A stretch of DNA of 64,000 bases from an uncultured Bacilli bacterium (GTDB lineage: Bacteria > Bacillota_I > Bacilli_A > RF39 > UBA660), in assembly GCA_910589335.1 (NCBI GenBank), contig CAJUTW010000001.1, forward strand, positions 7,972 through 71,971, in the 5' to 3' direction. Position 1 is the stretch's first letter; every line of letters begins with the position of its first letter. Positions 4,932-51,767 of this stretch are shown piece by piece. The position numbers and the translations under genes were made by a program. The notes under the pieces are model-generated. The model saw only the letters and a list, made by a program, of their open reading frames with translations. It made no database searches and was not told where the DNA came from.

Positions 4932-4948
4932 TCATAAAGGAGTTTTAG

Positions 4949-22787: not shown

Positions 22788-22795
22788 GAGGCTAT

Positions 22796-28912: not shown

Positions 28913-30466
28913 GTGATTATTAGGAAACCTTATGCTTTTTTAATTAAAAATTTTAAGAAGCTACATATATTTTTACTTTTATTAAGTTTATTTGTTGCTT
29001 ATAAATTGATAAATGTAAGTAGTTTTATTAATGAATTTATGAATTTGGGTATATATGATGCTTTTAATGAACCAATAAGTAAGCATATTTCATTTTTACT
29101 TTCTTTATCAATTTTGTTGTTAATTGTTGGATCTATTTCTATTCTTTTACTTTTAAGACATAAAAAGAAACCTTGGAAAATATATTTAGTTCCTTTTTTT
29201 GAGTATTTAGCTTTATTCTTTGTACTTGGAATGGTTAAAAGTTTTTTTGCTAATTATACAAATGATATTGAAACTACAGATTTAAGATTATCAAGAGACT
29301 TATTATTTATTTTTATATTTTTACAATTACCAGCAATATTTATATATGGAATGAGAGTATTTGGTCTTGATATTTCGAAATTTAATTTTAATATGGATCA
29401 GGAGTTTTTAGAGTTAAGTGAAGCTGATAGAGAAGAAGTTGAAATTAGTATAAATGTTGATAAACATTCTTTTAAGCGATTGTTTAAGAAATTTATTAGA
29501 AATATTAATTATTTTTATTTAGAACATAAAGGTATATGTAGAATTGTTTTAGTATTTATTGGACTTTTTATAGTTTATAATTCTTATAAATTTATTTTTG
29601 TTAATAATAGAAGTTATACAGAGGGAGATTTATATAGTGCTAATGGGTATAGTATAAAAATTAATAAAAGTTATTTTACTAATAAAGATTATAATGGAAA
29701 TGTTATTAGTAATAAAAGTAATTTTGTAATACTTAGTTTGACTATTAAAAATAATAGTGTTCCTAGAAAATTAAATTTAGATAATTTTCATATAAAGAAT
29801 GGAGTTAAAGATTATACTACTACTAGAAAAATGTATGCTAAAGAATTTGAAGATTTAGGAAATGCTAGTGATTCTTCAAAGGAATTAAAAAGAGATGAAG
29901 TTTTTGAAGTAATTATAATATATAAAGTAGATAAGGATTTAAAGAAAGAGAATTTTGTTTTATTTTATCAAGAGTTTGATGATAGTCATAAATTAAGAAA
30001 GATTAAGCTTAATTTGGAAGATTTACGAGAGATTAAAGAAGAGAAAGAATTAGTGCTTGGTGATGATTTAGAAGTAGATGTTTATAAGAAGAAAGATACA
30101 ATTAGTTTTAATTATTTAGAATTTCTTAATACAGCTTCATATGTATCTAGAAGGTGTAGTGGTTCTAATTGTGAAAGAATTACTGAGGAATTTAGTGTAG
30201 ATGAGAATTTTAAAATATTACTATTAGAGTTTGGTTCATTAGAGTATGAAGCCAAAAATATGATTGACTTTTTAACTAAGTATGGTAAAATTGTCTATAA
30301 GGATAGTGAAGGTAAAGTAAGGACTTTAAAGTATGAAAATCCTATAAAAAAGAACTATTATGGAAAGAGTATCTTTATAAAGGTTCCAAAAGAAGTAGAA
30401 GGTTCAGAAGAAGTAAAACTTTTATTTACGATTAGAAATAAAAAACATTCGTATAGATTGGTCTAG
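28913..30466 (+). CDS. Hypothetical polytopic membrane protein with a large extracytoplasmic C-domain
   Basis: Four or five N-terminal TM helices. Ends 8 nt before the first gene of the pilus/T4SS cluster. Confidence 0.4.
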   Translation: MIIRKPYAFLIKNFKKLHIFLLLLSLFVAYKLINVSSFINEFMNLGIYDAFNEPISKHISFLLSLSILLLIVGSISILLLLRHKKKPWKIYLVPFFEYLALFFVLGMVKSFFANYTNDIETTDLRLSRDLLFIFIFLQLPAIFIYGMRVFGLDISKFNFNMDQEFLELSEADREEVEISINVDKHSFKRLFKKFIRNINYFYLEHKGICRIVLVFIGLFIVYNSYKFIFVNNRSYTEGDLYSANGYSIKINKSYFTNKDYNGNVISNKSNFVILSLTIKNNSVPRKLNLDNFHIKNGVKDYTTTRKMYAKEFEDLGNASDSSKELKRDEVFEVIIIYKVDKDLKKENFVLFYQEFDDSHKLRKIKLNLEDLREIKEEKELVLGDDLEVDVYKKKDTISFNYLEFLNTASYVSRRCSGSNCERITEEFSVDENFKILLLEFGSLEYEAKNMIDFLTKYGKIVYKDSEGKVRTLKYENPIKKNYYGKSIFIKVPKEVEGSEEVKLLFTIRNKKHSYRLV

Positions 30467-30474: not shown

Positions 30475-32274
30475 ATGGAAAAGAAAATTATAAGAAATAT
30501 TAAAATTTTAATTGTGGTTGCTTTAATAGCAGCCTTTGTGTGGTTTATAGTAGTATCTCCAATGATAACATTTCATAAAAATGAGGAAAGTTTAGAAAAT
30601 GCAGCAAAAAGATATTTTGAAATAAATAAAGAACAGTTACCAACAGGAGAGAGAGTTAAGACAATTACTTTAAAAGAATTATATAATGATTCATATTTAA
30701 AAGAAGATTTTTATTCTCCTTATAGTAAGAAAAGTTGTTCTATTACAAATAGTTGGGTAAAGGTTAGAAGAGAAAATAATGAATTTAAATACTATGTATA
30801 TTTAGATTGTGGAATACTTAATTCTAAAATAGATCATGATGGACCAGATATTAAGTTAAATGGAGATAGTAAGATTACTTTGGGTGTTGATGAAGTATAT
30901 AAAGAACTAGGAGTTAAAAGTGTAGTTGATAATAACGATGGAAAACTAGATGTTAAAGATGTAACTATAAAAGGAAAAGTAGATACAAGTAAGATTGGTA
31001 CTTATGAAATAGAATATATAGCTTTTGATAAACTTAGTAATAAAACTGTTGTCACTAGAGAAGTTAGTGTTGTTAAAAAAATTAAAAATGTTGTTAAAAA
31101 AGATTTAGGAAATGTTACTAATTATTCTGGAAATCCAACTAACAATTATATTATGTTATCAAATATGATTTTTAGAATATTTGGATTAGATGATAATGAT
31201 AATGTTATTATAGTAGCTGATCAAGATATTGCTAATGTTAATCATTCTAAGTTAGACAAATGGTTAAATTATTATTATAAGCATTTAAATAGTGATGCTA
31301 AAAAAATGCTTGTTAAAAGTAAATTCTGTAATATGGATATTACTGATAATACTTTAGATACTTTACAATGTAATAGTTATACGAAAGAGAAAAATGTATA
31401 TATTCCTTCTATAGTAGAAGTTAATAAAGCACAAGCAGGAGATACTAATTTTATGAAGACTTTTACAATGTCTTGGGTTTCTAATAAGAAAAGTGATAAG
31501 GAAGCATATGTTACTAGAAAATATTTTGTTGGTGATGCAGCTGGTAAAAGTTTTTTAAGTTACAATATTGATGATAATTATGGGGTAAGACCTATGATGA
31601 TTATGAATGGTAATACTAATATTCTTGGAGGAGATGGTTCGTTTTTAAATCCATATTATTTTGAAGATATTAATATAGGAGCTACTAGTAGTTTAGTTAA
31701 TGAGAGAAAAACTGGTGAGTATATTGAAGATCATGGTACATTATGGAGAATAATTGATACTATGGATGATGGTACTACAAAAGTTATTACAGTAGATACT
31801 TTAGGATATGGTATGGATAGTCCAAAGATTTATACTGAGGCAGAAATTATTAAATATAATCCAAATAATAAAAATAATATAGCTTATTATATCAATAATA
31901 ATTTAAATGATTATGTTGATACAAGTAATTTTGTTAATCATGAAATAGAGGTTCCTATTTATAAAGATAAAATAATTTATGGAAAAGAAATAGAAACAAA
32001 AAAATATAAAGTTAAACTTTCTGCTCCAAATATGTATGAAATGTTTAGTGCACAATCTGCAACTGAAAAATTTGCAAATTCACGTTCATATTGGTTATTA
32101 AATACTTCTAATACTAAAAGAAAAACAGGAGCAATTACTGATATAGGAGTTCCTGTTAATGAAGAAATGCAATTGTATGATACTTATGGATTCCGATTAG
32201 TTGCTTATTTGAAAAAGGATAAAGTTATAGTTAGTGGAGAAGGTACTTATTATTATCCATATATAATAAAATAG
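30475..32274 (+). CDS. Membrane-anchored surface protein, paralog A (homologous over its full length to ORF 54135)
   Basis: N-terminal TM. Shared motifs YF...LPT, C-S/T...YL-CG, LWRI(I/V), (Y/W)WLL, (V/I)RP..(I/Y) and a G(E/D)GT...P(Y/F).I.K C-terminus. Confidence 0.5.
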   Translation: MEKKIIRNIKILIVVALIAAFVWFIVVSPMITFHKNEESLENAAKRYFEINKEQLPTGERVKTITLKELYNDSYLKEDFYSPYSKKSCSITNSWVKVRRENNEFKYYVYLDCGILNSKIDHDGPDIKLNGDSKITLGVDEVYKELGVKSVVDNNDGKLDVKDVTIKGKVDTSKIGTYEIEYIAFDKLSNKTVVTREVSVVKKIKNVVKKDLGNVTNYSGNPTNNYIMLSNMIFRIFGLDDNDNVIIVADQDIANVNHSKLDKWLNYYYKHLNSDAKKMLVKSKFCNMDITDNTLDTLQCNSYTKEKNVYIPSIVEVNKAQAGDTNFMKTFTMSWVSNKKSDKEAYVTRKYFVGDAAGKSFLSYNIDDNYGVRPMMIMNGNTNILGGDGSFLNPYYFEDINIGATSSLVNERKTGEYIEDHGTLWRIIDTMDDGTTKVITVDTLGYGMDSPKIYTEAEIIKYNPNNKNNIAYYINNNLNDYVDTSNFVNHEIEVPIYKDKIIYGKEIETKKYKVKLSAPNMYEMFSAQSATEKFANSRSYWLLNTSNTKRKTGAITDIGVPVNEEMQLYDTYGFRLVAYLKKDKVIVSGEGTYYYPYIIK

Positions 32275-32289: not shown

Positions 32290-33123
32290 ATGGCTAGAAA
32301 GAAAAAGAAAAATAAATATAAAATATTTGTGTGTTTTGTTATTTTTTCTATACTTTTATTTGGTTTTATAGGTCTTCTATTATTTAAAAAATATTTTAAA
32401 GTTGAAGAAAGTATTTTTGAAATTGAATCAAGAAGTAGTAATGTAGTAGAAAATAAGAAAAAAGATAATGATGAATATGAGACGATAGGATGGTTGAGGG
32501 TACAAGGTACAAATATAGATTGTCCTATAATAACTGGAAAAACTGAATTATATAAATATCCTGTTGAGCTTGAGAATTATGGTTGGATGACAAATAAGGA
32601 TAGAAAAAATTATAATGTCATGAATATATTTGGTCATAATATTTTCAATTTAGGACCTTCTCCTAAAAAAAGTTCAAATAATTTTAAACGGTTTGAAGAG
32701 TTAATGAATTTTATTTATCATGATTTTGCACAAGAAAATAAATATATACAATTTACAATTAATGGAAAAGATTATGTTTATAAAATATTTTCAGTAAGTA
32801 TTATTTATGCTTCTGATGTTGATATGTTTCCTGAAGGAGAATATAGTAAGCAAGAGAAAAAAGATTATATTAAATTACTTAGAGATAATAGTATTTATGA
32901 TTATGATGTTGATGTATTAGAAGAAGATGATTTAATTTCTATTGTAACTTGTACTAGATTTTTAGGAACTGATGCATATAGAGATATTCTTGTTAGTGGT
33001 AGACTTGTGAGAGATGATGAAAAAATCTATAATAATTATTCTGTTGATAAAAATAATAATTATAAAAAAATAGATAAAGTTTTGAAAGGTGATGATAATA
33101 ATGAAGAAATTGGTTCTGCCTAA
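32290..33123 (+). CDS. srtB: Class B sortase
   Basis: Aligns with S. aureus SrtB: IGWLRVQGTNIDCPIITGKT, active His (IFGHNIF), catalytic Cys LISIVTCT and conserved Arg RDILVSGRLV. N-terminal membrane anchor. Confidence 0.8.
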   Translation: MARKKKKNKYKIFVCFVIFSILLFGFIGLLLFKKYFKVEESIFEIESRSSNVVENKKKDNDEYETIGWLRVQGTNIDCPIITGKTELYKYPVELENYGWMTNKDRKNYNVMNIFGHNIFNLGPSPKKSSNNFKRFEELMNFIYHDFAQENKYIQFTINGKDYVYKIFSVSIIYASDVDMFPEGEYSKQEKKDYIKLLRDNSIYDYDVDVLEEDDLISIVTCTRFLGTDAYRDILVSGRLVRDDEKIYNNYSVDKNNNYKKIDKVLKGDDNNEEIGSA

Positions 33124-35941
33124 AAGAATAATAGGGGTTTTTATTTTAATATGTATTTCTTTAGTTCCTTTCTTTAGTGTTGATGCTAAAGATAAAAGTA
33201 AATGTGAAGAAGTTCTTAGTGAAGATGCTGTAAAAAGATATGGCCTTCAATTTGAACCAAAAAATAAAAAAGAAAAGAAGTTTGTCATATCAATGGATCC
33301 TCAGACTGATAATAAAACGCTTCTTAGCAAATTAAAAAAAATAAAATTTAAGGTTATTAAAATAAATGGCTTTGAACAAAATCTCCCAACAGGAACTCTT
33401 AATTATAAAAATGATTTGGTTATGAATGCAGTTTGGCAAACAGTTGGAGACGAAAAGATAATGTCTGTTACATTAGAGTCAACTGTGGCGGATGTAGATG
33501 GTGATTTTTGTAAAGGAAAAGGAGTTATTCGTTTTACTTTAACATATATAAAGGGTGGTGATCCTCAAGAGCACAATGTATATATTGATACAAGTGATCT
33601 TGATAATGATAAAATAGATACAACAAATCCAATAGATTGTAACTCTAGTCCTAAAAGTGATTTAGATCGATTATTTTGCAATGCCAAAAAAAAGGTTTTA
33701 GAAAAACAACCAAGAGCAAAAAATAAAAAAAATTCAATTCATTTTAGTTTTGATGGAAAATATTATTCTGGTTATAATGATGATAAAGAAGTTAAATATG
33801 AATTAAAATGGGATAAATTTGATTTAGAAGAAAAAGATACTCCTACTTTTAAATGTGATTATAAAAGTGCTTATTCGTTAGATGAATTACAAGGAGATAA
33901 TTATTATAAAGAAGAAAACAAAAGTTATTTATATGGTTCTGGAAGTTATGAAATTCCTTTCAAATATAATTATCATTATTCTCCTGGTAGTGATCCTGAA
34001 ACACATAGTACATCATGTAAGGTTAAATGTGAAGAGGCTGTTACCATTGAATATGGACCTCCAGTAGCTTCTAAGGCTGGATTATGTTTTGAATATAAAG
34101 TAAAGGTTACAAGTGTAGTTAATTGTAGTATGACTAAACCACCTGAACCTCCAAAAACAGATTTTAGTTATTGTGATCCTGCTCCTATTTGTACTACAAG
34201 CAGTGGTTTTGTAAGTAATCAAGGTGGTCCAAATGAAGAGTTTGATAGTTGTATAAAAAATTGTGATGGTGGAAAATATACAGATAAATGTAATAATAAA
34301 TGCTATGAAGAAGTTTATAATAATTCTTTAGAAAAAGTAATGTTTAATTCATTGCAAATAGGTGCAATTGAAAAAATGGCAAACAGTAAATCAAAAATTA
34401 CAAAAAATAGAAAAAAAATTACTAAAAAGAATAATTTAAATAGACTTATTCAACATGATGAAAGTTACTTTTCAATGAATAATTGTAAAGCGATAAATAA
34501 TGGTGGATGTTATGCTAAAAATTCTGATGGTTCTATAAGATGGGAAGGAGGACCAACATTCGCTGGACGTTGGTATGATAATAACCCTCATAAAGATTAT
34601 AGTGAATATGTTAAAGACGGCTTTGGTTTTTGGCGACATCTATATAGAAACAAAAATGAAAAAGGAGAAATTATTGAAACTATTTGTACTGATAATTGTA
34701 AATGGGTTGGATGTGATAATGCTAAGTATTTAAATCCAAAATTTGCAGAACAAGATTATATAAATAACAAAAAGATTTATGATCAAGCTAAAAAGTTATG
34801 TAAAGCAGCAGCTAGTTGTTCAACAACAACAGCAACATTTACTATCTCTGTAGATTATAAACACAATGTAAAAAATGGAAATGGTTTTGAAACAAAATCT
34901 GAAACTATTGATTTCCCTTATGAAAATAAAAAAGATAAATTAAACAGTAATGGTACTAATACAGTGTGTAAGTCAGGAGATGCTCTTTGTAGATCAACTT
35001 TATTAGACAATGATGGATGCTATAAAGATAAAGAAAATGAAAGATGGTACAGAGCTGAATGGAGTTTCCCTGGAACATGGATTGAAAATAAAACTGGTAA
35101 TATAACTTATGTTCCAAAAACAGGTACAGATTGGCAAAATATGAAACAAAAATTTTGTATTCCATTAGATGCATTGGATGTTAACCAAAAATGGTGGAGA
35201 TATTATTACAATAAAAAATTAGCTACACCTAATTCTACAACAGATCCATCATATAAGAATGAATGTGGAAATAACTCTAATTCAATTACTAATCCTGCAA
35301 ATGTTACAAAAGAGGATATTACATGGAATATTCATGCTAAAACTAGAAAATTTGGTTTTTATGCATGGAATATTAATATAGATTGTTTCTATGCTTTAAA
35401 TAGTAATCCTGCAAATGTTTCTACTAGTGATGATAAATCTAAGCAAGATAAATGTATTATTAATGATCAAAAGGGTTCAAATGATTATAAAATAAGACCA
35501 GTAGATTTAACTAATCTATTCCCTGCTACTGATGGTGGAGATAGTAATTTAACTGATCCTAAGAGTACTGGAAGAACACCAGGATTTAACTGGTCACAGT
35601 ATGCTAATACAGGAAATAAAAATTTAAGTTATGCAAGTAAACCTAGTGAATATGTAGAAACTGTTCAAAGATTAGGATATAAAGTTTATAATGATGAAAA
35701 TTTGGATTATCAATTCATTTTAACTAGAGATATATTAAATGATATGAAGACTACAACTAAAGTTAATGGAAAAAATTATACTGAATTTAATGGTAAGACT
35801 GAAGTAAAAAATGGAGTTGTTCATTATATAAGTAGTGCTATTAGAAGTGGTAGTGAATTAAGTAAGGCCAAGAAAAAAATACCAGATAGTGGTAATATAT
35901 TCTGTAATAATATGAAAAATTATAGTCAGGGCTGTAGATAG
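33101..35941 (+). CDS. Large (947 aa) secreted cysteine-rich protein of unknown function
   Basis: Signal peptide MKKLVLPKRIIGVFILICISLVPFFSVDA. Many paired Cys. No C-terminal sorting signal. Confidence 0.5.
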   Translation: MKKLVLPKRIIGVFILICISLVPFFSVDAKDKSKCEEVLSEDAVKRYGLQFEPKNKKEKKFVISMDPQTDNKTLLSKLKKIKFKVIKINGFEQNLPTGTLNYKNDLVMNAVWQTVGDEKIMSVTLESTVADVDGDFCKGKGVIRFTLTYIKGGDPQEHNVYIDTSDLDNDKIDTTNPIDCNSSPKSDLDRLFCNAKKKVLEKQPRAKNKKNSIHFSFDGKYYSGYNDDKEVKYELKWDKFDLEEKDTPTFKCDYKSAYSLDELQGDNYYKEENKSYLYGSGSYEIPFKYNYHYSPGSDPETHSTSCKVKCEEAVTIEYGPPVASKAGLCFEYKVKVTSVVNCSMTKPPEPPKTDFSYCDPAPICTTSSGFVSNQGGPNEEFDSCIKNCDGGKYTDKCNNKCYEEVYNNSLEKVMFNSLQIGAIEKMANSKSKITKNRKKITKKNNLNRLIQHDESYFSMNNCKAINNGGCYAKNSDGSIRWEGGPTFAGRWYDNNPHKDYSEYVKDGFGFWRHLYRNKNEKGEIIETICTDNCKWVGCDNAKYLNPKFAEQDYINNKKIYDQAKKLCKAAASCSTTTATFTISVDYKHNVKNGNGFETKSETIDFPYENKKDKLNSNGTNTVCKSGDALCRSTLLDNDGCYKDKENERWYRAEWSFPGTWIENKTGNITYVPKTGTDWQNMKQKFCIPLDALDVNQKWWRYYYNKKLATPNSTTDPSYKNECGNNSNSITNPANVTKEDITWNIHAKTRKFGFYAWNINIDCFYALNSNPANVSTSDDKSKQDKCIINDQKGSNDYKIRPVDLTNLFPATDGGDSNLTDPKSTGRTPGFNWSQYANTGNKNLSYASKPSEYVETVQRLGYKVYNDENLDYQFILTRDILNDMKTTTKVNGKNYTEFNGKTEVKNGVVHYISSAIRSGSELSKAKKKIPDSGNIFCNNMKNYSQGCR

Positions 35942-35962: not shown

Positions 35963-36463
35963 ATGAATAAGGCGATGTTAACAGTTGGAATAATTTTACT
36001 AAGTTTAATATCTTTACTTTTATTAAATGTATTAAGTAATTATTCGACTGGTGGAGAATTAGACTATTACTTAGTTAAAGAGACAACAGATGCAGCAATG
36101 GTTGATGCTATTGATAAAACTTATTTAAGAACATGTGGGCTATATCGTATTGATAAAGAAAAGTTCGTTGAGAGCTTTCTTTATCGATTCGCTGATAGTG
36201 TAGACACAACAAGAGATTATAAAATTGGATTTTATGATATTAATGAAGTACCGCCTAAAGTAAGTGTTAAGGTTGATTCATTAACTGTTCTAAGTTTTAA
36301 AGCAAAAAAAACTGATGCTGAAGGTAATGTAAGTGAAGATACAAGTGCTGCTACAATAACAACAAACTACGATGCAATATTAGAAGAAAAATATATTTCT
36401 GATCCTGCTGTCGAAGAGGGGCTTACAAGTAATAATTCTTACTTGTGTAAGCCACTAAGTTAG
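35963..36463 (+). CDS. Hypothetical N-terminally anchored protein, possibly a pseudopilin-like (TadE/TadG-like) protein
   Basis: N-terminal TM followed by N-Y-S/T, as in the two TadE-like ORFs (LVVNYTKA, FNVNYTKA versus NVLSNYSTG). Confidence 0.3.
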   Translation: MNKAMLTVGIILLSLISLLLLNVLSNYSTGGELDYYLVKETTDAAMVDAIDKTYLRTCGLYRIDKEKFVESFLYRFADSVDTTRDYKIGFYDINEVPPKVSVKVDSLTVLSFKAKKTDAEGNVSEDTSAATITTNYDAILEEKYISDPAVEEGLTSNNSYLCKPLS

Positions 36464-36478
36464 AAAGAGAGGAATAAA

Positions 36479-37288
36479 ATGGGTAATTTAACTACAGGTT
36501 TAAAAAAATTTATGCAAAATAAAAATACTGTAACAGTAGTTGGTGTAATATTAGCTATTATAGTTTTATATGTTGCATATACATGGAGGATTAATAAAGC
36601 TGTTAATCCTCAAGTAGTTCCTTATGCTGCAGAACAAATTAATGCAGGAACACAAATTACAGAAAGTATGATTGCTACTAGAGAAGTTCCACCATCAATG
36701 ATTTCTGGAGATGTTTTAATAAATAAAGGAGATATAATCGATAAATATGCTGCTGCTGATACTGTAATTCCAGAAGGAAGTTTATTTTACAGAAGATCAG
36801 TAGTAGAAAAAGAACAGTTACCAGCAAATATAATTTTGGATTATCCAAAGGGGCATGTTCTTTATAATCTTTCAGTTAGTACAGAAAGTACTTACGGAAA
36901 TTCTGTTTATCCAGGAAATTATATAGATATTTATTTAAAAGCAGTTAATAAAATAGATGAATCAAACCCTGCAGCTTTAACAGCAGATGCTGATAAAATT
37001 ATGTTAGGTAAACTTATGTCTAATATTAAAGTTTTAGCAGTAAAAGATTCAGATGGAAATCCGGTTTTCCAAAATATTGATGAAAATAGAAAACCAGCAA
37101 TGATAGTGTTTGCGGTTCCAGAAGAATATTATATTTTACTTAAAAAAGCAGAATATATGAGAACTTATGATACTTCATTAAATATAGTTCCTACTAATGA
37201 AAGTTTAAAAGATGAACCAGCTGATTTGGAAATTAGTAGTGATCAGTTAAAAGAATGGATTAATTTACATACAGTAATGGATCAATAA
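36479..37288 (+). CDS. cpaB: Flp/Tad pilus assembly protein CpaB/RcpC (SAF domain)
   Basis: N-terminal TM plus a SAF-like segment (ITESMIATREVPPSMISGDVLINKGDI). Confidence 0.65.
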   Translation: MGNLTTGLKKFMQNKNTVTVVGVILAIIVLYVAYTWRINKAVNPQVVPYAAEQINAGTQITESMIATREVPPSMISGDVLINKGDIIDKYAAADTVIPEGSLFYRRSVVEKEQLPANIILDYPKGHVLYNLSVSTESTYGNSVYPGNYIDIYLKAVNKIDESNPAALTADADKIMLGKLMSNIKVLAVKDSDGNPVFQNIDENRKPAMIVFAVPEEYYILLKKAEYMRTYDTSLNIVPTNESLKDEPADLEISSDQLKEWINLHTVMDQ

Positions 37289-37325
37289 AAAAAGAATAAA
37301 GAATAAAAATAAGGGTGTGAGTTAG

Positions 37326-38819
37326 ATGAATGGTAGTATTTTTGATAAATTAGATTTTGGACCTTTTCGTTCACTTTTGGATAATGATGATATTACAGAT
37401 ATATCCTATGATAATAATGGACAAATATGGATACGTTCACTAACTCAAGGATCTTTAAGAGTTGAGGTAGAAGGAGCTACTCCAGATTTTGTAGAAAAGT
37501 TAGCATTTCAATGTTCAAATGTTATGGGAACAACATTTAATAATGCTAAACCATTTCTAGATGCAGAAAGTGCTGAGTTACGTATGAACTTTGTACATGA
37601 GTCAATAGCTACAAATGGAATAGCCCTTGTAATTCGTAAAACTCCGGCCAAGATAAGACTTGAAAAAGAAAAGCTAATTGAAGAGGATTATTTTACACCA
37701 GCAATTCATGATTTTTTAATAAAGTGTGTTGAAGGGCATTGTAATATAATGGTTGCTGGTGAAACTGGTTCTGGTAAGACTGAGTTTGTTAAATATTTAG
37801 CTAGTCATACTAAGACTAACGAAAAAATTATTACTATAGAAGATACTTTGGAACTTCATTTAGATAAGATATTTCCTCAAAGAGATATTGTTGCTATGAA
37901 AACTAATAATGTAGCAAGTTATTCTGATGTTTTAGTTACTTGTATGCGTCAGAATCCTAAATGGATATTATTATCCGAAGTTCGTAGTGCTGAGGCGGTA
38001 TCTGCGGTACGTAACTCAATTTCTTCAGGACATAATATTTTATCTACAATTCATGCCGATAAAGCATCAGCTATTCCATATCGTTTATATTCTTTAATGG
38101 AAACTGATTTGGATGTTCATCAATTTCTTACAACAATTTATAGATATATTCAATTAGGAGTTCATATTAAAGCTTTCTACAGTAAAGAATATGGAAAGTT
38201 TCATCGTGAACTTGATGAAGTATCTGAATTTTATGTTGATGATAATAATGAACCTAAATCAAGAATTATTTATCAAAAGATTTTTGGAAAACCAATTATG
38301 TGTCGACCTAGTGATCATTTAATTGAATATCTTGAAAATCAGAATATAGATGTAAGTGAAATTATAAAAGATTTACCAAAGGATTTACCACTTGTTAAAG
38401 CTGAAGATGAGAATATTACTTCTGATAATAATAATGAGGATGGAGATTCTTCATCTAATTTAGTAGATGATAATAAAGCTGATAATACTAATGATGTTAT
38501 TCCTGATGCTGCTTCTAATCCTATTGTAGCTGATAATTCTTCAAATCAGTCAAATGAGGTAGTTGCTAATAATCAAAATACTGTTTCAACTGATACTCAA
38601 GTAGTTGAACAACCTGTAATTCAGGCAGTAGCACAACCAGAGGTGGTAGAAGTAGTTAATGAACAAAAGAGTATTCCACCTATGCAAGAGGGAACAAATA
38701 ACGTTCAGTTATCATCTATTCCAATTGTTCAATCAGTTATTCCGCAACAAGTAGTTGAACAGCCAATTAATCCAGTTTTAAATAATCAAATTTCAACAAT
38801 AGCAAAATTAGATGAATAG
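37326..38819 (+). CDS. tadA: Tad/Flp pilus ATPase CpaF/TadA (secretion NTPase superfamily) with a 130-aa low-complexity C-terminal extension
   Basis: Walker A GETGSGKT, Walker B/Asp box RQNPKWILLSEVR, His box GHNILSTIHA. Confidence 0.8.
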   Translation: MNGSIFDKLDFGPFRSLLDNDDITDISYDNNGQIWIRSLTQGSLRVEVEGATPDFVEKLAFQCSNVMGTTFNNAKPFLDAESAELRMNFVHESIATNGIALVIRKTPAKIRLEKEKLIEEDYFTPAIHDFLIKCVEGHCNIMVAGETGSGKTEFVKYLASHTKTNEKIITIEDTLELHLDKIFPQRDIVAMKTNNVASYSDVLVTCMRQNPKWILLSEVRSAEAVSAVRNSISSGHNILSTIHADKASAIPYRLYSLMETDLDVHQFLTTIYRYIQLGVHIKAFYSKEYGKFHRELDEVSEFYVDDNNEPKSRIIYQKIFGKPIMCRPSDHLIEYLENQNIDVSEIIKDLPKDLPLVKAEDENITSDNNNEDGDSSSNLVDDNKADNTNDVIPDAASNPIVADNSSNQSNEVVANNQNTVSTDTQVVEQPVIQAVAQPEVVEVVNEQKSIPPMQEGTNNVQLSSIPIVQSVIPQQVVEQPINPVLNNQISTIAKLDE

Positions 38820-38831
38820 GGAGGTGTTAAG

Positions 38832-39734
38832 ATGTATTTTACTGAATTATTAATAATAATAATTGTTGTAGTAGGTATATTTTTATACAGAAATTATAAA
38901 GGAGAAAATGTTGGAAAATATGTAATTAATCAAGTACAAACTGTTTATGATAAATTTGCTCCTTATTCATTTAAAGTTGTTAGAGAAAAAACTAAGCAGT
39001 TAGGACAGGAATATACTCCTAGACAATATGCCATTCAAATATCTTTGTTTGCTGGATTTGCAGCAGTTGTTACATATTTATATTTTTATAATTTAATAAT
39101 AAGTTTAATTTATGCAATTGCCGCTGTTTCTTTTGTTCCATACCTTACATATTTAAGATGTAAAAAAGTATATTCTGAATTTATATTCGAGCAAGTACAA
39201 GTTTATACTTCAAATACAATAATGGAATTTGCAACTACTCAATCTTTTGTTAAAGCATTAGAAGGTGTTAGAGATTCTGGTGTTTTAGAAGATCCAGTGT
39301 TAAGTGATGTTAATCAAATGATAAATATGAGTTATGATAATGGTACGATAGATGAAGCTTTAGAATATATGAGTAGATTATATCCTTATTATATAGTTAA
39401 GAATATGCATCAATTATTTTTACAGATTACTAAAGAAGGTGCACAAAATTCTGCTGATTCCCTAGAAAATATGCAATTAGATATTGATATGCTAGTAGAG
39501 AGTGTTTATCGTGATAGAATCGAGAGAGCTTCATTTCATAAGTCTTTTTTACAATTTGGTATTATGCTTTATTTAATGGTAATGCTTGTGCAATATTTGT
39601 TAGGTAGAGAAACTTATTTAGTTTTATTAGAGCGATGGTATATTCAAATTTTAATGCATGGTGTTTTAATTGTTAATACATATTTTCTCTTAAAAGGGGA
39701 AAAATACTATAATGAGAATGTAGGTGCTGAGTAA
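38832..39734 (+). CDS. tadB: TadB-like platform protein (T2SSF/GspF domain)
   Basis: TM - helical cytoplasmic domain - TM topology, directly after the ATPase gene. Confidence 0.65.
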   Translation: MYFTELLIIIIVVVGIFLYRNYKGENVGKYVINQVQTVYDKFAPYSFKVVREKTKQLGQEYTPRQYAIQISLFAGFAAVVTYLYFYNLIISLIYAIAAVSFVPYLTYLRCKKVYSEFIFEQVQVYTSNTIMEFATTQSFVKALEGVRDSGVLEDPVLSDVNQMINMSYDNGTIDEALEYMSRLYPYYIVKNMHQLFLQITKEGAQNSADSLENMQLDIDMLVESVYRDRIERASFHKSFLQFGIMLYLMVMLVQYLLGRETYLVLLERWYIQILMHGVLIVNTYFLLKGEKYYNENVGAE

Positions 39735-40537
39735 TGGAGATATTAGTAGTAGGTGCAGTTATAATGTTTATCTTAATTTATAATAATACTATAGATAAAG
39801 ATAAATTTTTTGCTGATAATCAAAAATACTTAGAGGCCTTTAAAGAAGATGACTATCAGTTTTTAGTATATGCTAAATATGGTGAAGATGTGGATATAGA
39901 TCAATTATATTCTAAACGAGTAACCAATGCCTTTATTGTATTTCTTGTAATATTAGCGCTTACAATTACTGGTGGTGATTCGGCGGAAATAATTAATTCT
40001 CAATTTTTTCTTAATTTAGTTTTATCTACCGTAATTGCTGTTTTAGTTTTTAAAATGCCTTATATGGAATTAAAAAGATATTATAAGTTACATCTTCATG
40101 AAATAGATGTAATGTTACCATACTATCTAAAAAGTTTAGAGATTTTAATTCAACATTATACTGTTCCAGTTGCAATTGGTAAATCAATAGGAGATGCTCC
40201 TGATATATTTAGACCTGGACTTAGAAGAATGATTGATAGGATAAATTCTGGAGATGCTTCAGTTGATCCATATATGGAATTTGCTAATACATATCCTGTT
40301 AGGGATTCTATGCGTATGATGAGACTTTTGTATCGTTTAGGAATAGGGTCACAAGAGAAAAAACAAGAAAGATTGATGATGTTTTCTAAGACAGTATCAA
40401 GCTTACAGAATAAGGCAAGAGAAACTAAATATAAGGAAAGACTTTCACATATGGAAAGTCAAACAATGGTTATGCTTGTTGTAACTGGTATTGGAGTTAT
40501 GCTTGTAATTTTAATTTCAATGATGATGATGTTTTAA
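39734..40537 (+). CDS. tadC: TadC-like platform protein (T2SSF/GspF domain)
   Basis: Same TM - cytoplasmic domain - TM topology, paired with the TadB-like gene. Start overlaps the upstream stop. Confidence 0.65.
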   Translation: MEILVVGAVIMFILIYNNTIDKDKFFADNQKYLEAFKEDDYQFLVYAKYGEDVDIDQLYSKRVTNAFIVFLVILALTITGGDSAEIINSQFFLNLVLSTVIAVLVFKMPYMELKRYYKLHLHEIDVMLPYYLKSLEILIQHYTVPVAIGKSIGDAPDIFRPGLRRMIDRINSGDASVDPYMEFANTYPVRDSMRMMRLLYRLGIGSQEKKQERLMMFSKTVSSLQNKARETKYKERLSHMESQTMVMLVVTGIGVMLVILISMMMMF

Positions 40538-40547
40538 TTAAAATATG

Positions 40548-40576
40548 TTGTTAAAAATAATTAGATTTGTTATAAT
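40548..40576 (+). promoter_or_regulatory. Strong sigma-A-type promoter (TTGTTA-N17-TGtTATAAT) for the small pilin-like ORF
   Basis: Consensus extended -10, 33 nt upstream of ATG 40610. Confidence 0.55.
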
Positions 40577-40609
40577 TAATTTGTAAAAATAAGAAAGGAT
40601 GGGATAATA

Positions 40610-40759
40610 ATGAAAGCAGCTACAGGAGAATTAAATTTAACAGTAATTACTTTACTTGCTATTGCGGCAGTAATTGCATTTTTCTGGGCAATGTGGCCAA
40701 GTATTTCTGAAACAATTAATGGACAATGGACAAATATAAGTACATATGGAGCTAAATAG
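40610..40759 (+). CDS. Small (49 aa) Flp-type pilin candidate (absent from the ORF track)
   Basis: MKAATG/ELNLTVITLLAIAAVIAFFWAMW: short charged leader, Gly, then a hydrophobic helix. RBS AAGGATGG with an 8-nt spacer. Own consensus promoter. Position between tadC and tadE is typical of flp. Confidence 0.5.
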   Translation: MKAATGELNLTVITLLAIAAVIAFFWAMWPSISETINGQWTNISTYGAK

Positions 40760-40771
40760 GGGTGTTATTAG

Positions 40772-41215
40772 ATGAGAGATGGATTTGGAGGTATTTTAAA
40801 TATAGTTTTTATTGTAATATTTTTACTTATTGTAGAAGGTGTTTTAGGTTTAGTTGTTAATTATACTAAAGCTTTTAAGATGAAAAACAATGTTATTTCA
40901 ATGATAGAACAATATGAAGCTGCAGGTTGTTTTGAAAACTCAGGAAATAGTGCATGTGTTAAAAGAATAATTGATAAAGCTAAAGAAATAGGATACTCTC
41001 CTACCTCTCTTAACTGTCCTAGTGGGTATGATTCAGTTTACGATTTATTTTGTTATAGAGGGGAAATTGTAAAAAATACTGATAATTATACAAGTTCAAA
41101 ACCAACTGTATATAAAGTTGTAACTCAGGTAGATTTAAATTTACCACTTATAAGTAATATTTTAGGATTTAGTATTTTTCAGGTATCAGGAGACACTGAA
41201 GTTGTTGAGTCTTAA
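40772..41215 (+). CDS. TadE-like pseudopilin (paralog 1)
   Basis: MRDGFGGILNIVFIVIFLLIVEGVL TM plus NYTKAFKMKN, the TadE-like N-terminal domain pattern. Tandem paralog. Confidence 0.6.
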   Translation: MRDGFGGILNIVFIVIFLLIVEGVLGLVVNYTKAFKMKNNVISMIEQYEAAGCFENSGNSACVKRIIDKAKEIGYSPTSLNCPSGYDSVYDLFCYRGEIVKNTDNYTSSKPTVYKVVTQVDLNLPLISNILGFSIFQVSGDTEVVES

Positions 41216-41233
41216 TGGTTAGAAGGTGATTTT

Positions 41234-41677
41234 GTGCGTGATGCTTTGGGAGGAACAGTAGTTATTACAATAATTGTTATTTTTATAGTTTTTGTTTCAG
41301 CTTATTTAGCATTTAATGTTAATTATACTAAGGCTTTTAAGATGAAGAATAAAATTATTTCGACTTATGAGGAGTATAATGGTAAATGTGAAACTGATTG
41401 TAAAACAAAAATAAAAGAATATGCTGAAAGTATTGGTTATAAACCTAATCTTAATTGTGGTAGTTATGATGAAGACAGTAATGGATTATATTGTTATAAA
41501 TTAATGGAAGTTAAAAAGAATGCTTGTGATGAAGGATCTAAAAAATATTATAAAATTCAAACAAAAATTGATATAAGAGTTCCAATTGTTGATAGTATTT
41601 TAGGATTACAAGTTTTTGCTATAAGTGGAGATACAAAAGTATTTGAAGATAAATTTTCTTCTGGAAATTGCAAATAG
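41234..41677 (+). CDS. TadE-like pseudopilin (paralog 2)
   Basis: MRDALGGTVVITIIVIFIVFVSAYL plus NYTKAFKMKN. GTG start after AAGGTGA. Confidence 0.6.
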   Translation: MRDALGGTVVITIIVIFIVFVSAYLAFNVNYTKAFKMKNKIISTYEEYNGKCETDCKTKIKEYAESIGYKPNLNCGSYDEDSNGLYCYKLMEVKKNACDEGSKKYYKIQTKIDIRVPIVDSILGLQVFAISGDTKVFEDKFSSGNCK

Positions 41678-41707
41678 TATTTAAAATAAAAAGGATGTTG
41701 ATAAGGA

Positions 41708-42718
41708 ATGAATGTTATTGTAGCTAATACACAACAAAATGAGTTATCTAATTTAGATATTGATATTATAAAAAGTATTTCTGGTGTGTATGAGGCAGCA
41801 GAAATCGTTGAAATGTTTAAAAGTTTTTTTTATAGTAAGATGATTTTAGATGTTACTGCTATTAAACATTATAATGATTTAAAGACTTATGAGTTATTAA
41901 TTCAAGGTTTGGATCCTGAAAAAATAATTTTTTTATTACCTGAAGGAAGTGAACTATGTACTTCAAATTTTTTATCACATCTTATATCAATTGGTATTTA
42001 TAATTTTACAACTAATTTAAATGGTATAAAATTTTTATTAAAAAAGCCTAATACATTAAAAGATGTAGAACATATTAGAAAAATGGCTGGAATGGAAAAC
42101 TCTACAGAAACAGGAGCAAGTGTTGCTACTGTTACTACAAAAGTAGAAAGTGGAACAACTGTCATTGGTGTTAGAAATGTGACAGAACATGCTGGAGCTA
42201 CAACTTTCATATATATGTTAAAAAAAGAGTTAGCAATTGTTTATGGACAAGATAATGTAATTGCTATTGAAATTGATAAAAATGATTTTCAATTATTTAA
42301 TGATAAACATATGGTTTCTTGTAAACAGAGTGAAATTAAAAATATGTTTCAAAAATATAGTAATGCAACAATTATTTTAGTAGATCTTAATGGAAATGTA
42401 GAAGATGCATTCTGTGGAGAAGTTTTATATTTAGTAGAGCCTAGTACTTTAAGACTTAATAAAGTAGTTAGAAGAAATCGAAATTGTTTTAGTAAATTAG
42501 TTGGTAAAAAAGTTATTTTGAATCAAAGCTTACTTTTAAATAATGATGTTTTTGATTTTGAGAGTGAAGCAGGTATTAAAGTTTTTTATAATTTGCCGCC
42601 ACTTGATGAGCGAAAAAGAAATGCTATAATAAATGATTTTTTAACTAAATTAGGTTTATTTAATAAGAGTGTAAAAAACAATTCAGGAAATAAGATATTT
42701 GGATTGTTTAGACGCTAA
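41708..42718 (+). CDS. TadZ/CpaE-like pilus localisation protein with a degenerate nucleotide-binding motif
   Basis: N-terminal receiver-like region. ParA/MinD-like segment VIGVRNVTEHAGATTFIYMLKKELA lacks the canonical GK[ST]. Confidence 0.4.
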   Translation: MNVIVANTQQNELSNLDIDIIKSISGVYEAAEIVEMFKSFFYSKMILDVTAIKHYNDLKTYELLIQGLDPEKIIFLLPEGSELCTSNFLSHLISIGIYNFTTNLNGIKFLLKKPNTLKDVEHIRKMAGMENSTETGASVATVTTKVESGTTVIGVRNVTEHAGATTFIYMLKKELAIVYGQDNVIAIEIDKNDFQLFNDKHMVSCKQSEIKNMFQKYSNATIILVDLNGNVEDAFCGEVLYLVEPSTLRLNKVVRRNRNCFSKLVGKKVILNQSLLLNNDVFDFESEAGIKVFYNLPPLDERKRNAIINDFLTKLGLFNKSVKNNSGNKIFGLFRR

Positions 42719-42775: not shown

Positions 42776-43114
42776 ATGTTAGATTTAGTACAAATTGGAA
42801 CAGATGCGTGTGGAGGATTATTACCTTTAGTAAAAGTAATATATGCAGCAATCAAGTTAGTTATGGTTATAATTCCTATTGCTTTAATTATATATGGAAC
42901 AATAGATTTAGGAAAAGCAGTTATTGCAAGTGATGAAAAAGAAGTTAAATCTGCTCAAAGTAGACTAATTAAACGTATGATTTACGCAGCTCTTATATTC
43001 TTTATTCCAATGTTAGTTGGTGTAGTTATGAATATCGTATCTGCTGGTGAACAAGGAGATACTGAAAGCTGGAATAATTGTTGGCAAGCTGTAACTGGTG
43101 GAGATAGTGAATAG
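42776..43114 (+). CDS. Small Cys-flanked two-TM membrane protein (VirB2/TrbC-like topology), family member 1
   Basis: TDACGG ... TM ... FFIP ... TM ... NCWQAV. Homologous to the N-terminus of the ORF 21918 NlpC/P60 protein and to the ORF 43188 C-terminus. Confidence 0.55.
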   Translation: MLDLVQIGTDACGGLLPLVKVIYAAIKLVMVIIPIALIIYGTIDLGKAVIASDEKEVKSAQSRLIKRMIYAALIFFIPMLVGVVMNIVSAGEQGDTESWNNCWQAVTGGDSE

Positions 43115-43163
43115 TAATAGTAATTATTGCTATTTTTTTTTTATTTTGATATACTTATTATGT

Positions 43164-43172
43164 TATAATGTA
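43164..43172 (+). promoter_or_regulatory. Extended -10 element (TGtTATAAT) after a hairpin/T10 terminator-like sequence at 43115-43160
   Basis: tgttataat precedes the GGAG RBS and ATG 43188. Confidence 0.35.
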
Positions 43173-43187
43173 TGCGGAGTGTGTTTT

Positions 43188-43715
43188 ATGCGAAAAAGAA
43201 TATTAGTATTATTAGTATTAATTATGTCGTTTATGTTAATTATTCCAATAGAAGCTGATGCTCTTCCTAGTAGAGAAATTAATAATAATGAGTTATCTGA
43301 AAATGTTTTTATGTTAACTAAAATAGATAATATGAAGAAGAAAAAGAAAAAAACAGAACCAATAACTGATATTGATGATGTTGATGATTTATTGGATGAT
43401 TATGATCAAGAACAGGATTGTAATGGGTCTAATTCTATCTTTGGAGATCCTGAAGATGAGGATTCTGTAGCATGGCTTTTACAACAGGCTTTAAATTATA
43501 TTAAAGTTATTGGACCAATTTTAGTTGTAATTTTAAGTAGTATAGATTTTGTTTATGTAATAGTTAAGAGTGATGATGAGGCAATGAAAAAAGCTACAAA
43601 GAAATTAACTTATAGAATTATTTTAGCTCTTCTTTTATTCTTTATTCCTACATTAGTTCAAGTAGCATTAGATTTATTTGGAATGGCAACTGATCCTACT
43701 TGTGGTTTACATTAA
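43188..43715 (+). CDS. Secreted-leader two-TM membrane protein (VirB2/TrbC-like topology), family member 2
   Basis: Signal peptide MRKRILVLLVLIMSFMLIIPIEADA, an acidic region, then QDCNG ... TM ... LLFFIPTLV ... TM ... PTCG. Confidence 0.55.
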   Translation: MRKRILVLLVLIMSFMLIIPIEADALPSREINNNELSENVFMLTKIDNMKKKKKKTEPITDIDDVDDLLDDYDQEQDCNGSNSIFGDPEDEDSVAWLLQQALNYIKVIGPILVVILSSIDFVYVIVKSDDEAMKKATKKLTYRIILALLLFFIPTLVQVALDLFGMATDPTCGLH

Positions 43716-43734
43716 ATAAAAAGAGGTGAATTTT

Positions 43735-45891
43735 ATGGGAGATAGTAATTTAGAAGTTTCTAGTGTTACTAATGATATTATTAGAAATTTATTTTCTACA
43801 TTAGATAAACCTGCTTATTGGTTATTAGGCTTAGTTTACCAATTGTTTTTTAATGTTGCTTCTGCTGATTTGTTTAGTAATCAAACAGTAATGAATTTTT
43901 ATAAAAGAATCCAATTGATTATTGGAGTTTTTATGATGTTTCAACTAGCTGTTACTATAATTAGAGGAATAGTTAATCCTGATACTTTTACGGATTCGAA
44001 AAATGGTGCAACTAATTTAATTAAGAGAGTAGCAATTTCTTTAGTTTTAATGACTCTCTTAGTTCCTATAAATATTCCGGGTGCAAAAAACGAATGGGAA
44101 AGACAGCTTAATAATCATGGGTTTTTATTTGGTGGTCTTTATTCACTACAACATAGAGTACTTAGTAATAATACATTAGGTAGACTTATACTTGGAAATG
44201 ATGATTCGGCTGAATCGTTTACTGAAAGTGATTTTAATGATGATGATAGTAGTTTAGCAAAGTCTGCTAGAATTTTTACATCGACGATTCTAAAAGGATT
44301 TTATAGAATAAATTTAATTCCTTATGAAGATCGTGTTCATAAAAAAGGTAGAGATGACGCTACTATAAATGAAAATAGAGTATGTAAAAATATGGATGAT
44401 GCAATACTAAATTCTTATACAAGACTTGATGCAGATCCTGGAGATATCATTGCTTTAGTTACATATGATTGTGAATATGAAGCAGCTGAATCTAATGCGA
44501 TACAAAATGTTATTAGTTTAATTAATAAGAAATGGGCTGGTCAGATGCGATATGGATTTGCTTATATGCCTTTTATATCAGCAATTGTTGCATTTGTATT
44601 TGTATTTATTCTTCTTAATTTTACTGTTGAAGTTGCTGTTCGAGCTGTTAAATTGGCTGTATTAAGATTAATTGCTCCAATACCTATTATTTCATATATG
44701 GATCCTAAAGGAGGAAAAGATTCTGCTTTCGGTTCTTGGGTTAAAACTTTAACGACAACTTATTTAGATTTATTTATAAGATTAGCTACTGTATACTTTG
44801 TGTTATTCTTAATACAAGATATGATAGTTAATGGTATTTATATTAATCAAGGAGAAGGAATTTTAGGGGTACTGTCATTTATCTTAATTTTAATTGGTTT
44901 ATTTGTTTTTGCAAAACAAGCACCTAAGTTTATTAAACAAGTTTTAGGAATAAAAGATGAAGGTGGTAAGTTCTTAAGTGGAATTAGTGATTTAGCTGCT
45001 GCTACTTCTATTGCTGCTGGAACTGTTGGTTCTGCTCTTAATAGTTTTCGTGCTGCTAAAGAAGAAAATGATGCTTTACATGAAGGCAGTGTACTTAATG
45101 GATTTAGAAATTTTGGTTCTGCAATAGCAGGTGCTATTGGTGGTGGAGCAGCTGGTGCTAAAGCCTTTATGGGAAAAGATGCTTCTGCTCAAGCTGTTAG
45201 AGCAGCTATGGATCAAAGAAATGCTATGCGTGCAGCTCATTCAACTGCTACAGGTAGACTTGCAAGTAATGCATATGGTTTGCTTCGAGGTGAATCTTTA
45301 GCAGCTAGAGATCAAGCTATATTAGAAGCTAATAAGGCAGCATCTACATCAATTAAAGCATTTAAAACAACAGCTGTGGAAGAGGCTATGAAAAAAGGAA
45401 GTTACGGAAACGTATCAACTGCTAATGATAGGTTTGGAAGATTAACAGGAATTAACTTTAATTATCGTCAATTGGAAGCTGCGATTAATACAAAGGATAA
45501 TAGTGGTAATTTTGATTATACAGATTCTACTGGAACTGTACATCATTTGAATGCTGCATGGTTTGATTCTTCAGTTATGGCTGATATTGAAGATAGTCAA
45601 ACAGCTAATTATTTAAAAAGTGATTATGATGAACATACTGGTAAATTTGCAAATAATAAACTTAATACTGATTGGCGTAATGCTAAACATGATATGTCAG
45701 AAGCTAAAATAGATTATCGTGGAAATTATCTTGGAGATATTGGAGCTGGTTCAGGAGTTAATATTAATGGTGCAGATTATGCTTATAAAGATATTGGTAA
45801 GAGCATAGGTGTTGCCAATGAAAATGTTGCTAATATGAATACAGATATGAAACATATTATGAATCGTGCTAATAGTCAAAACAAAAAATAG
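43735..45891 (+). CDS. VirB6/TrbL-like polytopic T4SS channel protein (ConG/TcpH-like) with a long Ala/Gly-rich C-terminal extension
   Basis: Periplasmic N-domain followed by at least five TM helices (FISAIVAFVFVFILL, LAVLRLIAPIPII, LATVYFVLFLIQDMIV, ILGVLSFILILIGLFVF). Confidence 0.6.
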   Translation: MGDSNLEVSSVTNDIIRNLFSTLDKPAYWLLGLVYQLFFNVASADLFSNQTVMNFYKRIQLIIGVFMMFQLAVTIIRGIVNPDTFTDSKNGATNLIKRVAISLVLMTLLVPINIPGAKNEWERQLNNHGFLFGGLYSLQHRVLSNNTLGRLILGNDDSAESFTESDFNDDDSSLAKSARIFTSTILKGFYRINLIPYEDRVHKKGRDDATINENRVCKNMDDAILNSYTRLDADPGDIIALVTYDCEYEAAESNAIQNVISLINKKWAGQMRYGFAYMPFISAIVAFVFVFILLNFTVEVAVRAVKLAVLRLIAPIPIISYMDPKGGKDSAFGSWVKTLTTTYLDLFIRLATVYFVLFLIQDMIVNGIYINQGEGILGVLSFILILIGLFVFAKQAPKFIKQVLGIKDEGGKFLSGISDLAAATSIAAGTVGSALNSFRAAKEENDALHEGSVLNGFRNFGSAIAGAIGGGAAGAKAFMGKDASAQAVRAAMDQRNAMRAAHSTATGRLASNAYGLLRGESLAARDQAILEANKAASTSIKAFKTTAVEEAMKKGSYGNVSTANDRFGRLTGINFNYRQLEAAINTKDNSGNFDYTDSTGTVHHLNAAWFDSSVMADIEDSQTANYLKSDYDEHTGKFANNKLNTDWRNAKHDMSEAKIDYRGNYLGDIGAGSGVNINGADYAYKDIGKSIGVANENVANMNTDMKHIMNRANSQNKK

Positions 45892-45914
45892 AATAAAGAG
45901 GAGTGTGAGATATA

Positions 45915-48545: not shown

Positions 48546-48574
48546 AAAATAGAAAAGAAGTAAGGTGATGTAGT

Positions 48575-50914: not shown

Positions 50915-50922
50915 GAGAATTT

Positions 50923-51711: not shown

Positions 51712-51767
51712 TTAATGACAGTTTTAAAAAGTTACGTTATAATATAGGGAGAGGAGGAAGTAGTGGT

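Follow-up and report, generated by a model that had tools for sequence, protein, structure and literature searches.

Two paralogous membrane-anchored proteins with pilin-like stalks and DUF6273 heads, possible docking proteins of a pilus and type IV secretion locus in uncultured gut Bacilli

Introduction

What do two related, probably surface-exposed proteins do near the ends of a chromosomal block that encodes both a pilus-like apparatus and a type IV secretion system (T4SS)? The question is raised by a stretch of 64,000 nucleotides from an uncultured Bacilli bacterium (assembly GCA_910589335.1, contig CAJUTW010000001.1), referred to here as the window, in which a dense gene cluster includes the open reading frames (ORFs) 30475 and 54135, named after their start positions. 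An earlier interpretation of the letters alone, the sequence-only reading, regarded the two products as paralogous membrane-anchored surface proteins that open and close the cluster and so mark it as one functional and evolutionary unit, and it proposed that they may be adhesins or docking proteins. Both ORFs are present as it placed them (Table 1).

The evidence described below shows that they are ancient paralogues in which a membrane-anchored stalk of pilin origin carries one or two heads of the DUF6273 family. We give about an even chance to the proposal that proteins of this kind dock the T4SS/pilus apparatus on a target surface. No description of the proteins or of the locus was found in the searchable literature, including that on RF39 with secretion systems or pili.

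Homology of the two proteins

The N-terminal regions align in pairwise BLASTP with 36.6 bits (E 1e-6) and 26% identity over 118 residues, and the C-terminal domain of 54135 aligns twice in 30475, at residues 216-394 (E 0.013) and 412-599 (E 0.016). Smith-Waterman scores were compared with those of shuffled sequences: the stalk with its membrane helix removed gave z 10.5 (Gumbel p 8e-7) and each 30475 head against 54135 gave z ~6.3 (p ~1.6e-4), both with 2000 shuffles, and the full-length pair gave z 8.8 with 500. Profile-profile comparison of the two families, built from 24 and 25 orthologues, aligned 312 columns with a probability of 98.6% (E 1.1e-15). When module profiles were run against all 347 ORFs of the window, the other paralogue was the only significant non-self match (E 1e-8 to 8e-5) and no third copy was found. 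Chance similarity is ruled out by the profile-profile alignment, the shuffle tests and these window-wide searches.

The alignment of stalks and C-terminal domains noticed in the sequence is thus borne out by statistics. The motifs on which it was based are real, but those of two different heads of 30475 had been mixed together: ‘RP..I..N’ belongs to head 1, and ‘LWRI’, ‘YWLL’ and ‘G.GT...P..I.K’ to head 2. The duplication of the head, and an immunoglobulin-like (Ig-like) domain between stalk and heads, had been overlooked.

Both families are large and conserved in length (~405 and ~600 residues), each with hundreds of clusters at 90% identity. As the two share only ~26% identity and each family is kept in every genome examined, the duplication is judged to be ancient. 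Their standing as paralogues is, at the level of sequence, well supported; the family to which they belong, of membrane-anchored and probably surface-exposed proteins, would be lineage-specific.

Domain architecture and topology

Each protein begins with a hydrophobic helix, continues with a stalk module of ~85 residues and ends in one head (54135) or two (30475). The Ig-like domain (PF16403) is found in 30475 only, 54135 being without it, and is matched there by PDB profiles and by Foldseek to Big_3/Ig domains. The cysteines outside the membrane are all invariant and even in number in each module, consistent with disulfide pairs, and basic residues stand before the membrane helices. For these reasons an N-in/C-out topology with disulfide-bonded external domains is the probable arrangement. 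The earlier description of both paralogues as membrane-anchored surface proteins agrees with this predicted anchor and its external, binding-type domains.

Neither protein ends in an LPXTG motif with a hydrophobic stretch and basic tail; the C-termini are ...YYYPYIIK (30475) and ...EKPFKIK (54135). A candidate substrate for the sortase of the cluster was sought by motif scan, and no LPXTG-type sorting signal was present in either paralogue or in any other cluster protein.

The cytoplasmic tail predicted for 54135 is disordered in the AlphaFold2 (AF2) model, with a predicted local distance difference test (pLDDT) score of ~30. Its start is invariant in the closer orthologues at M, N6 and V8 and nearly so at K10. 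More distant members linked to a T4SS have a looser x-F-N/K motif, and members outside T4SS loci begin otherwise.

The stalk

AF2 predicts for 30475 a helix at residues 2-50 followed by strands at 61-65, 94-100 and 103-109, and for 54135 helices at 31-65 and 72-89 followed by strands, with pLDDT 82-95. Both models have the mark of a pilin fold, an N-terminal helix of ~50 residues that leads from the membrane to a small beta-sheet. Foldseek found no match between either model and a solved pilin, Pfam assigned no family to 24 stalk sequences, and profile searches of PDB sequences matched the Ig-like domain only, leaving stalk and heads unmatched.

A joint stalk profile run against 1.84 billion representative proteins matched 1647 clusters (E <= 1e-3). 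In all 150 of the matches listed the module is close to the N-terminus of the protein, and in the seven sequences inspected it directly follows an N-terminal hydrophobic helix. One relative, P0242, is a canonical prepilin with an N_methyl motif (PF07963; KRQG/FTLVELL), two tandem modules and a ConA-like lectin domain (Laminin_G_3). It matches the stalk with E 2.7e-29 in the profile search and with an hhalign probability of 98.1% (E 6.6e-14), and the gene next to it, on a Firmicute chromosome, encodes a second such pilin. A word-index homologue search with the P0242 module returned nothing. Pilins with G/FTLVELL and the same module are also encoded at the loci L014, L017, L026 and L086 of our sample, and both window proteins are colinear with the L026 pilin from the alpha1-N helix to ‘YL.CG’ (BLASTP E 1e-7 and 2e-5). 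Pilin ancestry of the stalk is, as far as sequence comparison can tell, well supported. A possible likeness of ‘AA..YF......LP’ to GspG-type pseudopilins was considered and is superseded by these direct matches.

Related genomes encode, 4-9 kb downstream of the locus, very large canonical type IV pilins of up to 1587 amino acids (aa) (L026 15555-20300, L014 6067-7662, L017 19964-21100), and these have no counterpart in the window. Kinship of the stalk with the two 147-aa proteins of the locus (40772 and 41234) was considered and rejected, the hidden Markov model match being weak (E 0.0055) and the hhalign probability 1%.

A pilin is defined by its class III signal, a short leader ending in Gly or Ala followed by ~21 hydrophobic residues, usually with Glu5 (PF07963/IPR012902). 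PF07963 matches neither paralogue, and neither N-terminus (30475, MEKKIIRNIKILIVV...; 54135, ...ARKRMYKMMKIIIFG...) has a Gly at -1 or a Glu5. A prepilin signal motif occurs in only 1 of the 150 best module-bearing proteins. Because the defining signal peptide is missing in both, the two proteins are, by their sequences, derived from pilins yet not pilins by definition; the signal for prepilin peptidase would have been lost from the module of both paralogues, or never have been present in it.

Could they be pilus subunits all the same, minor-pilin-like proteins that enter the Tad-like or another type IV filament with their heads at the tip, or that anchor its base? The homology of the stalk with modules of canonical modular pilins fits this, the locus encodes a pilus ATPase, platform-like proteins and a 49-aa pilin candidate, and modular pilins with lectin modules are established (PMC8179133, PMC9934059). 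The missing class III signal stands against it, as does the 43-residue cytoplasmic tail ahead of the 54135 helix, and no prepilin peptidase (Peptidase_A24) is found within the 64-kb window. Furthermore, the module derives from N_methyl-type pilins but the locus has Tad-like machinery, and the stalk is unrelated to the 147-aa proteins. We regard incorporation into a filament as distinctly unlikely.

The heads

The Pfam family PF19789 (DUF6273; gathering cut-off 23.5 bits) matches residues 209-385 of 54135 with 30.0 bits (E 5.8e-7). It has no match at E <= 0.1 in the 30475 of the window, gives 28-40 bits on head 1 in five 30475 orthologues, and is recorded as a precomputed match in 16 of the 120 orthologues listed. 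When the 404-aa model was compared with predicted viral structures, Foldseek returned models of DUF6273, receptor-binding and tail-fibre proteins (E 4e-5 to 1e-3). The 599-aa model found the solved IgA peptidase of T. ramosa (9qa6; E 7.6e-4), the N-terminal domain of which is a DUF6273 (PMC12402451). The DUF6273 of phage ‘tentaclins’ is reported to be C-type-lectin-like and a target of diversity-generating retroelements (PMC10743442). The shared C-terminal module has in this way been identified as DUF6273, with a predicted C-type-lectin-like fold in common with phage receptor-binding proteins, and the heads may bind a ligand. A tblastn search of phage records with the 54135 head gave no match.

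Mean pairwise identity is 0.53-0.63 for the heads and 0.64-0.67 for the stalks. The heads are not hypervariable, which argues for a conserved ligand.

A moderate and uniform rate of head evolution would also suit structural parts of the secretion channel, that is, wall-spanning scaffolds comparable to the bitopic VirB8 and VirB10 and not binding proteins. Each paralogue is bitopic and has large external domains, in a T4SS locus where neither VirB8 nor VirB10 can be recognised. However, they show no similarity to T4SS component families in Pfam or NCBIfam, the fold family of the heads is one used for ligand binding (PMC10743442), and relatives occur outside T4SS loci. A scaffold role is therefore very improbable.

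Gene context

Conservation of the right end was examined in 80 species-level loci that encode a relative of 54135. The order VirB6, VirB4, hydrolase, 262-aa protein, VirD4 and 404-aa gene is shared by 69 of the 80, the 54135 orthologue lying directly after VirD4, and most of the 69 continue with rhodanese, DedA and RmuC. At the left end the order in five species is GreA, a variable slot, a 513-517-aa gene, a 593-602-aa gene, sortase and the rest, and the 599-aa family holds its place in all five. The variable slot contains a 299-aa ORF in this species and a 149-aa ORF in two others, and is empty in the remaining two. The 513-517-aa membrane-protein gene stands 8-9 nucleotides (nt) upstream of the 30475 family gene in all five species-level loci examined. 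One other contig has the paralogues 24.8 kb apart, the same spacing as in the window.

A second, independent arrangement occurs in L087-L089, with a VirB2-like gene immediately ahead of a 54135-like one (37-38% identity); L088 additionally has another VirB2-like protein, VirB6, VirB3 and VirB4 encoded downstream of the latter. The linkage of this family with T4SS genes is conserved.

The remaining 11 of the 80 loci have a 54135-like gene without a T4SS neighbour, and in L090 such a gene stands beside GTPase genes with no T4SS gene. The order in the 11 (L055, L059, L060, L062, L063, L067, L068, L072, L074, L075 and L078) is a putative FtsW/RodA-like gene followed by genes for small Cys-rich proteins, a histidine kinase and an HD protein, the 54135-like gene and SpoVA genes. 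The hosts appear to be spore-forming relatives, one with a circular genome of 1.52 Mb.

Such exceptions are what would be expected if the paralogues were general cell-surface lectins or wall-associated proteins with no functional tie to T4SS or pilus, their positions reflecting a frozen gene order. Synteny is indeed conserved over the whole region, housekeeping flanks included, and DUF6273 is found in unrelated surface proteins such as the IgA peptidase (PMC12402451). The L087-L089 arrangement, which places the family beside VirB2-like and, in L088, ahead of VirB6, VirB3 and VirB4 genes in a different order, speaks against this, as do the tight gaps to cluster genes (8 nt before 30475 and 15 nt between VirD4 and 54135) and the cytoplasmic N-terminal motif conserved among the T4SS-linked 54135 members. 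We consider proteins of such general function an unlikely, though not negligible, explanation.

Unity and inheritance of the locus

The sequence-only reading took the paralogues as the first and last genes of a co-oriented unit. ORF 54135 is the last gene of the cluster, but 30475 is preceded by 28913 and is not the first. Co-orientation delimits nothing, since the plus strand holds nearly all genes from 2.3 to 59.9 kb of the window. The genes between the paralogues do travel together in many genomes, but it is not the flanking paralogues that reveal this, because their duplication is ancient and synteny continues into housekeeping genes on both sides. Judged by gene order, the block is one conserved unit that starts at 28913 and lies within a larger frozen chromosomal neighbourhood. 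The scan for promoters performed at chance level and that for terminators gave no match at any cluster boundary, so neither yields operon boundaries.

The large part of VirB4 is 81-97% identical across species, compared with 41-73% for the 404-aa proteins and 40-75% for neighbouring proteins; the best plasmid VirB4 is only ~29% identical. VirB4 and VirD4 are present, as in a conjugative element, but searches of the 64-kb window revealed neither a relaxase nor an integrase, and the housekeeping flanks are the same from species to species. The locus is therefore vertically inherited and not a mobile element, which suggests a core function other than conjugation. The same housekeeping neighbourhood surrounds the locus (27937-55349) in dozens of species.

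Proposed function

The proposal to which we give about an even chance can be set out in steps. An uncleaved hydrophobic helix would hold each protein in the membrane, and the pilin module, with the Ig-like domain as a spacer, would form a stalk through the wall. The heads would bind a conserved ligand on a target surface, either another cell or a glycan, and this binding would dock the T4SS/pilus apparatus there. The two genes are fixed parts of a vertically inherited, relaxase-less chromosomal locus of uncultured gut Bacilli, made up of a Tad-like pilus block and a monoderm T4SS. The suggestion that the paralogues may be adhesins or docking proteins is, given the anchors and the external binding-type domains, a reasonable one, and such a role is plausible.

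Several observations weigh against it. AF2 confidence in the heads is moderate (pLDDT ~50-90), and Foldseek of the 404-aa model against the PDB gave no significant match. The heads evolve no faster than the stalks, in contrast to many adhesins. A tblastn search of PLSDB plasmids with 54135 found no relative, and hence no link to a studied conjugation system. To these are added the 11 loci and L090 described earlier, and the adjacency in the main group, which could reflect frozen gene order given a synteny that extends into housekeeping genes.

In a bolder version, Tad-like pilus and T4SS would form one hybrid machine of a kind not yet described, and the pair would be the parts of it that recognise the target. 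Such a machine would be a vertically inherited core organelle of a large clade of uncultured gut Bacilli with small genomes, a counterpart to the relaxase-less chromosomal T4SS of Patescibacteria. The proteins would then represent a new class of ‘signal-anchored pilins’, in which pilin modules have been turned into permanent membrane stalks for lectin heads, and the conserved cytoplasmic tail of 54135, whose gene comes next after VirD4, would link external binding to the secretion ATPases. This we put forward as speculation that is unlikely to be correct.

If the docking proposal is true, pilin modules can be converted into fixed membrane stalks for binding domains, and the idea of the modular pilin extends beyond filaments. 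Likely contact-making parts would also have been named for a T4SS and pilus locus that is conserved and not mobile. The locus occurs in a widespread, uncultured group of gut bacteria, and the ligand of the heads would show to what these attach and with what they exchange material: other bacteria, or host mucus or cells.

Comparison with known systems

The closest known design to both proteins is the modular type IV pilin, as seen in Streptococcus sanguinis, where PilB carries a vWA module and PilC a ConA-like lectin module (PMC8179133, PMC9934059). In both designs a hydrophobic helix at the N-terminus is followed by a small pilin module, with binding modules grafted at the C-terminus, and the stalk is homologous in sequence to modules of canonical N_methyl pilins. 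Unlike modular pilins, the proteins described here lack a class III signal peptide, have no prepilin peptidase encoded in the window, bear DUF6273 heads instead of vWA or ConA-like modules and, in 54135, carry a long cytoplasmic tail. Their genes lie in a T4SS/Tad-like locus and not in a Pil operon.

With the DUF6273 of phage tentaclins (PMC10743442) the heads have in common the Pfam family PF19789 and the predicted fold. The proteins here are, in contrast, cellular and membrane-anchored, their heads are not hypervariable, and there is no sequence-level match in phage records.

Gram-positive conjugation adhesins such as PrgB of pCF10 (cited in PMC12102498) are likewise surface proteins encoded with a monoderm T4SS, and are thought to make or stabilise cell contact. 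PrgB-type adhesins carry a Sec signal and, at the C-terminus, an LPXTG sorting signal, whereas the paralogues lack LPXTG and possess a signal-anchor at the N-terminus. The two kinds are unrelated in sequence, and no relative is found on any PLSDB plasmid.

As a whole, the locus is paralleled most closely by the relaxase-less chromosomal T4SS of Patescibacteria (PMC12102498). The likeness is one of context, with VirB4, VirB6, a coupling protein, PF18895 pilins and no relaxase in a monoderm-type system inherited with the chromosome of small-genome organisms. The phylum differs, the present locus belonging to Bacilli, and the Tad-like block, the sortase and the two pilin/DUF6273 proteins are features of this locus that distinguish it from the Patescibacteria system, in which no adhesins were detected (PMC12102498).

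Other features of the window

The cluster runs from the 299-aa ORF to ORF 54135 between two housekeeping flanks. The left flank (<27.9 kb) encodes rhomboid, IreB, RuvX, MltG/YceG, an O-methyltransferase, two U32 peptidases, an HD protein and GreA; the right (>55.4 kb) encodes rhodanese, a DedA/VTT protein, RmuC, DUF3603, Ku and an ATP-dependent ligase. NCBIfam searches with ten cluster proteins gave nothing useful.

Table 1. Features of the cluster and domains of the two paralogues, in window coordinates
Feature	Position	Strand	Remarks
299-aa ORF	starts 27937	+	precedes 28913 gene
517-aa polytopic membrane protein	28913..30466	+	weak DUF4352 match; directly upstream of ORF 30475
ORF 30475, 599 aa	30475..32274	+	signal-anchor, pilin-like module, Ig-like domain, two DUF6273-type heads
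30475 membrane helix, aa 11-29	30505..30561	+	follows basic N-terminus MEKKIIRNIK; no Gly at -1, no Glu5
30475 pilin-like stalk module, aa 30-116	30562..30822	+	invariant C88, C112
30475 bacterial surface Ig-like domain PF16403, aa 126-199	30850..31071	+	56.6 bits, cut-off 27
30475 head 1, DUF6273, aa ~205-398	31087..31668	+	invariant C285, C299; PF19789 in five orthologues
30475 head 2, DUF6273-like, aa ~410-599	31702..32271	+	by homology to 54135 head only, not Pfam
Sortase-domain protein, then 950-aa Cys-rich secreted protein	32290..35941	+	follow ORF 30475
Tad-like pilus block	35963..42718	+	order: DUF5411, CpaB/RcpC-SAF, T2SSE ATPase, two polytopic membrane proteins, 49-aa pilin candidate, two 147-aa paralogues (40772, 41234), 336-aa protein
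49-aa ORF MKAATGELNLTVITLLAIAAVIAFFW...	40611-40760	+	between second platform-like gene and two 147-aa genes
T4SS block	42776..54119	+	order: two VirB2-like T4SS_pilin proteins, TrbL/VirB6, TcpE/VirB3-like, split VirB4, SpoIID-domain hydrolase, 262-aa protein, VirD4 coupling protein
ORF 54135, 404 aa	54135..55349	+	cytoplasmic tail, signal-anchor, pilin-like module, one DUF6273 head
54135 predicted cytoplasmic tail, aa 1-43	54135..54263	+	N-terminal motif MNxNFNxVKKPKK, then acidic spacer
54135 membrane helix, aa 44-66	54264..54332	+	sequence, AF2
54135 pilin-like stalk module, aa 67-152	54333..54590	+	invariant C128, C149; pLDDT 82-95
54135 DUF6273 head, aa ~165-404	54627..55346	+	Pfam match 209-385; invariant C281, C298, C324, C332

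The G+C content is ~24% across the window. By region it is ~20-25% in the flanks and the two paralogue genes and 27-32% in the core of the locus (34-54 kb).

The 49-aa ORF of the Tad-like block resembles a Flp or class-III-type pilin, as a candidate only, and a 49-aa gene is called at the same place in L001, L082 and L084. VirB4 (46153-48545, plus strand) is split into two overlapping ORFs of 201 and 596 aa, and the same split is seen in related loci that cover VirB4 (L002-L081).

Two further regions lie outside the cluster. At 21918-23581 (plus strand), between the O-methyltransferase and U32 peptidase genes, are an NlpC/P60 hydrolase gene with an N-terminal T4SS_pilin (PF18895) segment and a 261-aa ORF. 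The pair, missing at the corresponding place of L082 and L084, looks like a species-specific insertion of T4SS-related genes, ~6 kb upstream of 28913. At 1480-6561 a minus-strand AAA_25 ATPase gene is followed by a run of small plus-strand ORFs, most without a Pfam match and one a GNAT acetyltransferase; this region may be the remnant of a mobile or defence element.

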